Source of the DNA: a virus
Length of the DNA: 64,000 nt
Strand: one strand, 5' to 3'
Virus genome (UHGV): UHGV-1374997
Shown here piece by piece: positions 12,841-12,890 of the stretch (position 1 is the stretch's first letter; each line of letters opens with the position of its first letter). The position numbers and the translations under genes are program-made. The notes beneath the pieces were generated by a model, which saw nothing but the letters and a program-made list of their open reading frames with translations, searched no databases and had not been told where the DNA came from.

Positions 12841-12890
12841 ATTTTACAATTTTGTCAAGTATCCATTCCAATAATTTTACAATTTTGTAA
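12841..12890. promoter_or_regulatory. two copies of 18-bp dyad element TTTTACAA-TT-TTGT(C/A)AA; minus-strand -35 TTGACA lies inside copy 1
   Basis: ATTTTACAATTTTGTCAA (12841-12858) and ATTTTACAATTTTGTAA (12874-12890); third copy at 41133. Confidence 0.5.

Follow-up and report, generated by a model that had tools for sequence, protein, structure and literature searches.

A short dyad had been noticed ahead of two groups of genes in an uncultured gut phage, and the question was whether it is a site through which late genes are controlled and, if so, what kind of factor would read it. According to the earlier note, the element occurs only before the lysis cassette (two copies) and the portal/head operon (one copy), forms a near-perfect palindrome, has a TTGACA -35 hexamer beside each copy, and marks the site of a dimeric late-gene activator or repressor.

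The phage and its early/middle promoters

The window, that is, the whole 64-kb stretch of DNA that was analysed, is part of an uncultured phage of ~88-90 kb. Near-identical contigs were found in the IMG metagenome 3300045988, which is a co-assembly of human faecal samples (preprint 10.1101/2023.07.31.550844), and the phage also occurs in ENA gut assemblies. A megablast search of INPHARED with two window segments gave no match to a cultured relative, and at the protein level the best matches to cultured phages were ≤39% identity for the portal and ~35% for the DNA polymerase. For comparison we used phage B, a diverged relative pieced together from Logan assemblies (SRR240185xx), whose proteins share 48-92% identity with their window counterparts (portal 87%, endolysin 81%).

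The genes are arranged as a leftward early block (1-7000, - strand), a rightward block (7011-11400, + strand) with genes for a P27-type TerS-like and an RNA-binding (phrog_850) protein and with tRNAs, a leftward block (24293-11469, - strand) of methyltransferase, Dda-like helicase, primase, resolvase and RNA ligase genes in which the lysis cassette comes last, and a further rightward block on the + strand that starts at 24255. This last block begins with replication and nucleotide-metabolism genes and from 41223 onwards contains the genes for portal, protease, major capsid protein (MCP), connectors, major tail protein, tape measure, tail tip and fibres. Judged from its genes the phage looks virulent, as no integrase was seen and replication genes and tRNAs of its own are present. 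The phrog_850 'RNA-binding protein' is divided between two overlapping ORFs (7853-8437 and 8391-9389), and together with a tRNA-Phe(AAA) called by ARAGORN at 9400-9475 (below the Rfam tRNA gathering score), RtcB (33481-34662), an RNA ligase (13258-14361) and a cREC_REC protein encoded outside the window these look like an RNA-repair/Ro-Y-RNA-like module. A homing endonuclease gene (phrog_314, 35328-36083) is present in the window and absent from phage B, and the NrdD of phage B (L011 6432-9377) carries an intein (981 aa vs 632 aa in the window).

About 14 intergenic early/middle promoters form a class of their own, TTGACA-N17-TAnnnT, and none of them carries the motif. The fuller form of this class is (T)AAAAAA-N4-5-TTGACA-N17-TAG(A/G)TT, with examples at 4076(-), 4650(-), 7578(+), 16944(-), 24347(-), 29894(+) and 33407(+); between window and phage B the A-tract, -35 and -10 are conserved in this class, whereas the spacer varies freely. 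The late promoters that carry the motif do not have the A-tract UP-like element of the early promoters. Class-specific promoter and operator motifs are the rule in phages.

Six copies of the motif in the phage genome

The reported sequences were all confirmed (ATTTTACAATTTTGTCAA at 12841-12858 and 41133-41150, ATTTTACAATTTTGTAA at 12874-12890), but they are not the only ones. The core ACAAAAWTGTAAAA occurs five times within the window (12842, 12875, 41134, 43732 and 54310); the first three positions share the exact 14-mer TTTTACAATTTTGT, and the other two are one-mismatch copies reading TTGACAAAAATGTAAAA on the + strand (43732-43748 and 54310-54326). When the remaining ~25 kb of the genome was scanned (L101, L352 and L104) exactly one more copy was found, just beyond the window, where it precedes the large terminase (TerL) gene (L101:20957, equivalent to L352:9929). 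The genome total is six copies at five promoters, and the genome-wide search had added three, at the capsid, tail and TerL loci, all before late-function genes.

Allowing up to three mismatches to an idealised 18-mer, seven matches were obtained where dinucleotide shuffles gave an expectation of 0.36, so that the motif is far more frequent than chance would have it. A PWM, built from the motif sites themselves, scored the five window sites at 26.6-30 bits and the next best window match at 12.6 bits, which is the level of shuffled sequence; genome-wide, the noise level was ≤13 bits and nothing outside the six copies exceeded it. A match at 34690 with three mismatches, a coding location and a low PWM score was set aside as chance. 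Every copy is non-coding or overlies a promoter, and every copy precedes genes of late function. The motif is real, significant and was previously under-counted.

Architecture of the motif

The consensus is a pseudo-palindrome of 17-18 bp, (T/A)T(G/T)ACAA-AW-TGTAAAA, in which one arm is always TGTAAAA and the other either TTGACA or ATTACA. A dyad is indeed present but it falls short of near-perfect, the arms TTKACAA and TTGTAAA agreeing at 5-6 of 7 symmetric positions; given this imperfection, an asymmetric reader of the motif is possible. The outer pentamers TTGAC...GTAAA lie 11 bp apart, roughly one helical turn, and the size, arm symmetry and pentamer spacing of the motif are what one would expect of a site for a dimer.

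On the gene-sense strand, four copies (lysis, capsid, tail and TerL) have TTGACAAAAWTGTAAAA followed by a -10-like hexamer. At these four of the six copies the motif takes in the -35 hexamer and continues for 11 bp into the spacer, with the right arm TGTAAAA occupying spacer positions ~-25 to -19. The spacer and -10 hexamer are 17 bp and TACGCT for lysis, 19 bp and TACACT for capsid, 16 bp and TATAAT for tail, and 17 bp and TATACT for TerL, so the same 11-bp spacer sequence is kept across spacers of 16, 17, 17 and 19 bp. The two remaining copies (distal lysis and portal) have no -10 box at a usable distance and are called promoter-less here. If transcription is taken to start 7 nt beyond the -10 box throughout, the centre of the dyad is at ~-27.5 in the embedded copies, which is 2.5 bp beyond the -35 hexamer, at ~-60.5 for distal lysis and at ~-51.5 for portal. 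The predicted late starts are at ~12823(-), 41194, 43769 and 54344 and, for TerL, downstream of its promoter. The claim that a TTGACA -35 lies beside each copy held at 41134, where a separate TTGACA is found ~7-8 nt downstream, but at 12842 the TTGACA is the dyad's own arm, and the copy at 12875 has ATTACA and no promoter of its own.

Hexamers 16-18 bp apart, as in sigma-70/sigma-A promoters, are present at the lysis, tail, TerL and portal promoters, the 19-bp spacer of capsid being the exception. From this promoter-like context we infer that RNAP uses the motif promoters and where transcription starts, and, from gene function only, that the units are expressed late. Four of the five late promoters lie directly 3' of intrinsic terminators. 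TTGTAA and TGTAAAAT were considered as alternative -35 or -10 elements and were rejected because their partner hexamers were inconsistent; the geometries of the IHF consensus, TyrR box, CRP/FNR and MerR did not fit either.

Lysis, portal and capsid loci

At the lysis locus the proximal dyad (12842..12859, - strand; 30.0 bits) reads CTTGACAAAATTGTAAAA and contains the -35 hexamer of the lysis promoter (TTGACA, 12858-12853, - strand), 17 bp from a putative -10, TACGCT, at 12830..12835 on the same strand. The endolysin ATG is at 12799, with the SD caggag at 12812-12807. The distal promoter-less dyad, TATTACAAAATTGTAAAA (12875..12892, - strand; 26.6 bits), carries ATTACA in the left arm, and its centre is 33 bp upstream of the proximal dyad. 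Just upstream of both dyads, a bidirectional terminator-like hairpin (12896..12927), GAGCATC-N9-GATGCTC with A/T-run flanks and read directly from the sequence, closes the RNA-ligase/107-aa operon; in ENA relatives its stem shows compensatory forms (GAGCATC/GATGCTC, GGGCGTC/GACGCCC and GGGCATC/GATGCCC). The cassette that follows (11469..12799, - strand; phrog_465, 2.2e-49; PF13539) encodes an M15 endolysin as its first gene (12799-12410), a membrane protein of 191 aa (12363-11788) and a protein of 103 aa whose C-terminal part has a TM segment (11780-11469), all on the - strand. It lies on the opposite strand within the early/middle block, yet it carries the late motif. A separate 217-aa protein with an N-terminal TM and a transglycosylase/endolysin-like domain (36105-36758; phrog_873, 2.6e-44) is encoded among the nucleotide-metabolism genes, at a distance from the lysis cassette.

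Ahead of the portal gene, an intrinsic terminator (41102..41123, + strand; 9 pairs, 6 GC) ends the replication/nucleotide-metabolism block and is followed by the promoter-less portal dyad (41134..41151; TTTTACAATTTTGTCAAT on the + strand and ATTGACAAAATTGTAAAA on the - strand; 28.8 bits). This dyad is inverted relative to the gene and ends ~7-8 nt before a separate core promoter, TTGACA-N17-TATAGG (41159..41187, + strand), with a spacer free of the motif and a G at -7. Across eight haplotypes of the IMG/VR population the dyad was invariant, variation beginning 3 nt outside it. The possibility that this copy is a leftward promoter was rejected: there is no conserved -10, transcription would at once meet the terminator, and the TTGACA of the window is ATTACA in phage B. 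More distant portal relatives (45% identity, L012) were without the motif, and in a set of 5.8 billion proteins no relatives fell between 48% and 87% identity.

The interval between the protease gene and the capsid promoter contains an intrinsic terminator of 13 pairs (43674..43706, + strand). The capsid promoter (43731..43762, + strand; 27.0 bits) reads GTTGACAAAAATGTAAAA and then TACACT, with a 19-bp spacer, and since the true MCP start is the ATG at 43859 the leader is ~100 nt long. This leader (43762-43858) shows good conservation in phage B (CCTCAGTTCGGGATGAATGGGAGG with its flanks), and in variants L015 and L016 a recombination breakpoint lies directly after the GATTTA of the capsid promoter.

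Tail and terminase loci

The tail promoter, CTTGACAAAAATGTAAAA-GTACG-TATAAT (54309..54337, + strand; 16-bp spacer; 27.4 bits), matches the consensus at 12 of 12 hexamer positions. It is intragenic, lying inside a 128-aa virion gene (54054-54440) and upstream of a minor tail gene (54409-54945). In variant L098 a synonymous T->C substitution falls in the right arm here. Between the minor tail gene and an NlpC/P60-like gene sits an IS200/IS605-type transposase/TnpB-like gene (54985-56195, 391 aa; phrog_506, 1.4e-127) with its own TTAACA-N17-TATAAT promoter; it is absent from phage B and from the IMG/VR relatives, in which the interval is ~1.4 kb shorter.

The TerL-side copy reads TTGACAAAAATGTAAAA-TGAAGC-TATACT and comes directly behind a terminator, with the TerL start codon 72 nt farther on; GATAAT, a -10-like hexamer, follows the -10 immediately. 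TerL itself is encoded beyond the window (L352:10001-12136; phrog_9, 5e-155), as the final rightward gene. The P27-type TerS-like gene (7075-7545) has an early-type promoter (7011) without the motif and is the sole late-function gene outside the motif set; counted round the circularly permuted genome, it is ~25 kb from TerL.

Conservation in a diverged relative

Phage B keeps each motif copy that could be checked, and the flanks of the promoter-less copies are unalignable or variable. The motif-bearing spacers differ between window and phage B at only 2 of 52 positions (0/17, 0/16 and 2/19), compared with 16 of 34 in the motif-free spacers (9/17 and 7/17). At the lysis locus, the 32-nt stretch that covers the proximal dyad and the -10, CTTGACAAAATTGTAAAATTGATTTACGCTA, is unchanged in phage B (L109), as is the distal core ATTACAAAATTGTA; the DNA between the two dyads is about half different and 1 nt shorter, and that farther upstream is unrelated. 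The DNA upstream of the portal gene in phage B is likewise unrelated, another gene and terminator abutting there, yet ATTTTACAATTTTGTAA is kept, 1 bp nearer to the conserved TTGACA. The phage B portal promoter itself is TTGACA-N17-TATATG, and its motif-free spacer differs from that of the window at 9/17 positions. The spacing of the promoter-less copies thus shifts by 1 bp between lineages. The capsid spacer is 19 bp in both phages and one of its two differences is at the W position, which is variable among sites.

The tail promoter falls within a 53-nt run (54303-54355) with zero substitutions between the two phages, in a virion gene in which 41 of 129 third codon positions (32%) differ (permutation P=0.006 for the run). 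In a control, the motif-free middle promoter at 29894 keeps its -35, -10 and A-tract, and its spacer differs at 7/17 positions. As the promoter-less copies are conserved in variable or unalignable DNA, the motif appears to be a binding site that is independent of promoter recognition by RNAP, and selection on it both with and without a promoter argues for the binding of a factor as opposed to mere paralogy or intrinsic effects of the spacer.

The motif in other phages

The exact 17-mer was found in at least 118 IMG/VR stretches, many of the matches being unrelated and having a -10 box at N17. A composition-matched permuted control was found in at least 120, with a -10 box in 16% against 35% for the motif among the matches listed. 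Since the permuted control behaves similarly, most of the singleton IMG/VR matches can be regarded as a background of TTGACA with AT-rich spacers. Contigs of at least 50% GC accounted for 14 of 80 with the motif and 2 of 94 with the control, again among the matches listed; this enrichment, and a contig with three copies, are not accounted for by the background. The latter, the unrelated IMGVR_UViG_3300024309_000086 (66 kb, GC 0.60), has the identical 17-mer three times together with a variant, TTGACAATTTTGTAAAA. One exact copy is 17 nt from the start of a divergent ORF matching phrog_4, 'transcriptional repressor' (E=1.3e-8), and the variant lies just after the stop codon of this ORF (L131 7418-8080, L168, L186), which gave no sequence match in Pfam or PDB. 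This contig offers a precedent for the same sequence serving as a repressor-controlled promoter/operator. In other high-GC contigs with the motif, several copies were seen upstream of an AlpA-like HTH_17 gene. A tblastn comparison of all window proteins with the other motif-bearing contigs found no small protein common to them, and a literature search for the motif strings returned nothing relevant.

Candidate regulators and the proposed mechanism

PHROGs and Pfam scans of ~85 ORFs (the window plus the rest of the genome in L101, L104 and L352), many of which had no family assignment, detected no sigma factor, HTH/RHH repressor, Q, MotA/AsiA or Ogr-type protein. A single dimeric DNA-binding protein could be recognised, a member of the HU/IHF family (29317-29619; PF00216, 3.8e-17), which is conserved in phage B and is a weak candidate for the regulator. 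A 267-aa protein (26547-27350) gave a marginal Arc-like/HeH match (PHROG, 3.6e-5) without support from Pfam. The 107-aa ORF adjoining the lysis promoter is acidic and so is unlikely to bind DNA.

The reading that we favour, to which we would give an even chance, is that the motif is a factor-binding operator built into the late promoters and acts as a common cis-regulatory module of the late units. Occupation of the sites by a sequence-specific, probably dimeric factor, encoded by phage or host, would put the lysis, packaging, head and tail operons on one switch. At the four embedded sites such a factor would lie over the -35 hexamer and the near part of the spacer, overlapping sigma region 4, and at the distal lysis and portal sites it would cover the UP-element zone, through alpha-CTD contacts or as cooperative partners; the two lysis sites, 32-33 bp apart, would possibly be bound cooperatively. 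Under negative control, promoters would be occluded and then relieved late. The motif has the properties of repressor operators, being a dyad within 14-20 bp that is present in several copies and overlaps the core promoter, with four of six copies lying over the -35 and spacer. Because these four sites overlap sigma region 4, the geometry is repressor-like (or sigma-remodelling) and not that of a classical upstream activator. On balance the sign of control, as far as promoter geometry can suggest it, leans towards negative or dual. Counting against this reading are the lack of a recognised regulator gene among the ~85 ORFs scanned, the imperfect palindrome, the portal promoter without an embedded site, the TerS-like gene without a motif, the T->C variant of the tail copy in L098 and the 1-bp shifts in spacing. 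With regard to the proposal of a dimeric late-gene site, what stood is that the motif is a selected non-coding signal, confined to late units and with the size and symmetry of a dimer site; the regulon was larger than had been counted, and in four of six copies the motif is fused to the -35 instead of adjoining it.

In a virulent phage, a phage-made repressor cannot yet be present at infection time zero, and its absence creates a problem for purely negative control that positive control would solve. In that case the reader of the motif would be an activator or a phage factor bound to RNAP, and it would replace or re-shape the sigma region 4 contacts at ~-30 or contact alpha-CTD from ~-51/-60, as with T4 MotA/AsiA, Mu C/Mor, P2 Ogr and phi29 p4, and late promoters would be silent until it was made. 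Several features do give the late promoters a look of activator dependence: the portal -10 (TATAGG/TATATG) is defective, without T at -7 in both lineages, and the sole motif copy of this promoter is at an activator-typical position; the 19-bp capsid spacer is kept in both lineages; and the A-tract UP-like element of early promoters is absent. However, TTGACA is perfect at all five late promoters, and two of them, TTGACA-N16-TATAAT and N17-TATACT, come close to the consensus and ought to be active with host RNAP in its unmodified form, presumably like the early TTGACA promoters. In addition, the scans of the ~85 ORFs found no homologue of MotA, AsiA, Ogr, Mor/C or sigma, and a dimer at ~-28 is not at a known activator position; we know of no activator dimers centred there except those of the MerR type, whose geometry is not seen here. 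We regard positive control or sigma appropriation as unlikely.

Another possibility is that there is no dedicated factor, the late promoters being a host-RNAP family in which an AT-rich spacer sets strength through DNA shape or flexibility and late expression follows gene dosage. TTGACA with an AT-rich 11-mer is common in viral promoters, the permuted control TTGACAATAWAGATAAA is similarly abundant in IMG/VR, with a -10 at 16-18 bp in 16% of the matches listed, and conservation at the tail promoter spans the whole RNAP footprint and not just the dyad. This is nevertheless hard to reconcile with the two copies that have no usable -10, one of them pointing away from its gene, and that were conserved while their flanks changed, or with an 11-bp sequence that is identical across spacers of 16, 17, 17 and 19 bp when the spacers of this phage's early promoters are free to diverge, and we consider it distinctly improbable. 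The location of the motif in the -35/-10 interval of strong-looking promoters would also suit a loading site for a Q-like antiterminator that makes RNAP from constitutive late promoters terminator-resistant; the late region has strong intrinsic terminators (41102, 43674 and one before TerL), and -10-like hexamers occur in some initially transcribed regions (e.g. GATAAT at TerL). But no motif promoter is separated from its first gene by a terminator, a motif promoter of its own comes after each terminator, which makes read-through unnecessary, the PHROGs/Pfam scans gave no Q-family match, and the promoter-less upstream copies would be left unexplained, so that this idea seems highly improbable.

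If the motif is, as favoured here, an operator common to the late promoters, it would provide a testable regulatory map of an uncultured gut phage lineage, with five late promoters, their terminators and one common switch, and it would mean that the lysis cassette is wired to the structural genes despite its early/middle location on the other strand. The motif is also a handle for finding the regulator and a marker for late operons in relatives. It leaves the understanding of phage gene regulation unchanged, being an ordinary kind of control element in a new lineage. A bolder proposal, which we think unlikely, is that the late regulon is timed through a -35-fused operator and a regulator of no recognisable family, and that TTGACAA-NN-TTGTMAA is reused by unrelated phages of 28-61% GC, an example being the three copies in IMGVR_UViG_3300024309_000086, one of them beside a CI-like repressor gene. 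If true, it would suggest that a family of regulators and operators not yet described is widespread and uses the RNAP -35 consensus as a half-site.

Comparison with known systems

Several host-type sites can be set apart by sequence or spacing. MerR-type promoters have a 19-20 bp spacer with the dyad centred in it (~-23), whereas the spacers here are 16, 17, 17 and 19 bp and the dyad centre is at ~-28. The pentamers of the CRP/FNR boxes (TGTGA-N6-TCACA and TTGAT-N4-ATCAA) differ from those of the motif and, relative to the TyrR box TGTAAA-N6-TTTACA, the arms are everted (TTTACA-N4-TGTAAA).

Among phage systems, the middle promoters of T4 likewise have a class-specific element near -30 together with a sigma-70 -10 box. 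There the MotA box, (a/t)(a/t)TGCTT(t/c)A at -30, replaces the -35 hexamer and AsiA appropriates sigma; the motif TTGACAAAAWTGTAAAA, however, retains TTGACA, promoter-less copies exist here, and MotA and AsiA had no match in the scans. P2 Ogr, P4 Delta and Mu C resemble the present case in having a dyad common to all late operons, and the copies at -51 and -60 are near the Ogr position of ~-55. Ogr is a Zn-finger activator acting at a TGT-N12-ACA dyad at promoters with poor -35 boxes, whereas the motif has an ACA-N4-TGT core and a perfect -35 at four promoters, and no Ogr/Delta match was obtained. The phi29 p4 site is also an AT-rich inverted repeat that overlaps the -35 for repression or lies upstream for activation, but its sequence (CTTTTT-N15-AAAATG) is unlike the motif, the late A3 promoter has no -35 box, and no p4/p6 homologue was seen here. 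The QBE of lambda PR' is, like the motif, a regulator site between the -35 and -10 of a late promoter, a position that fits four of six copies; lambda PR' is a single late promoter where this phage has several, and neither a promoter-proximal terminator nor a Q homologue was found.

Operators of temperate phages provide a further comparison. The 434 operators are ACAA-N6-TTGT, from which the motif differs both in arm sequence and in its core spacing, ACAA-N2-TTGT. CI, Cro and Arc systems also differ in that no such gene was found here, the phage looks virulent, and the targets are late and not early. In their layout, nonetheless, lambda OR/OL, 434 and P22 Arc/Mnt (Pant) are like the motif, with multicopy pseudo-palindromes of 16-18 bp lying over the sigma-70 -35 and spacer, and CI/Cro-type operators are like the lysis locus in having an auxiliary copy about three helical turns away.
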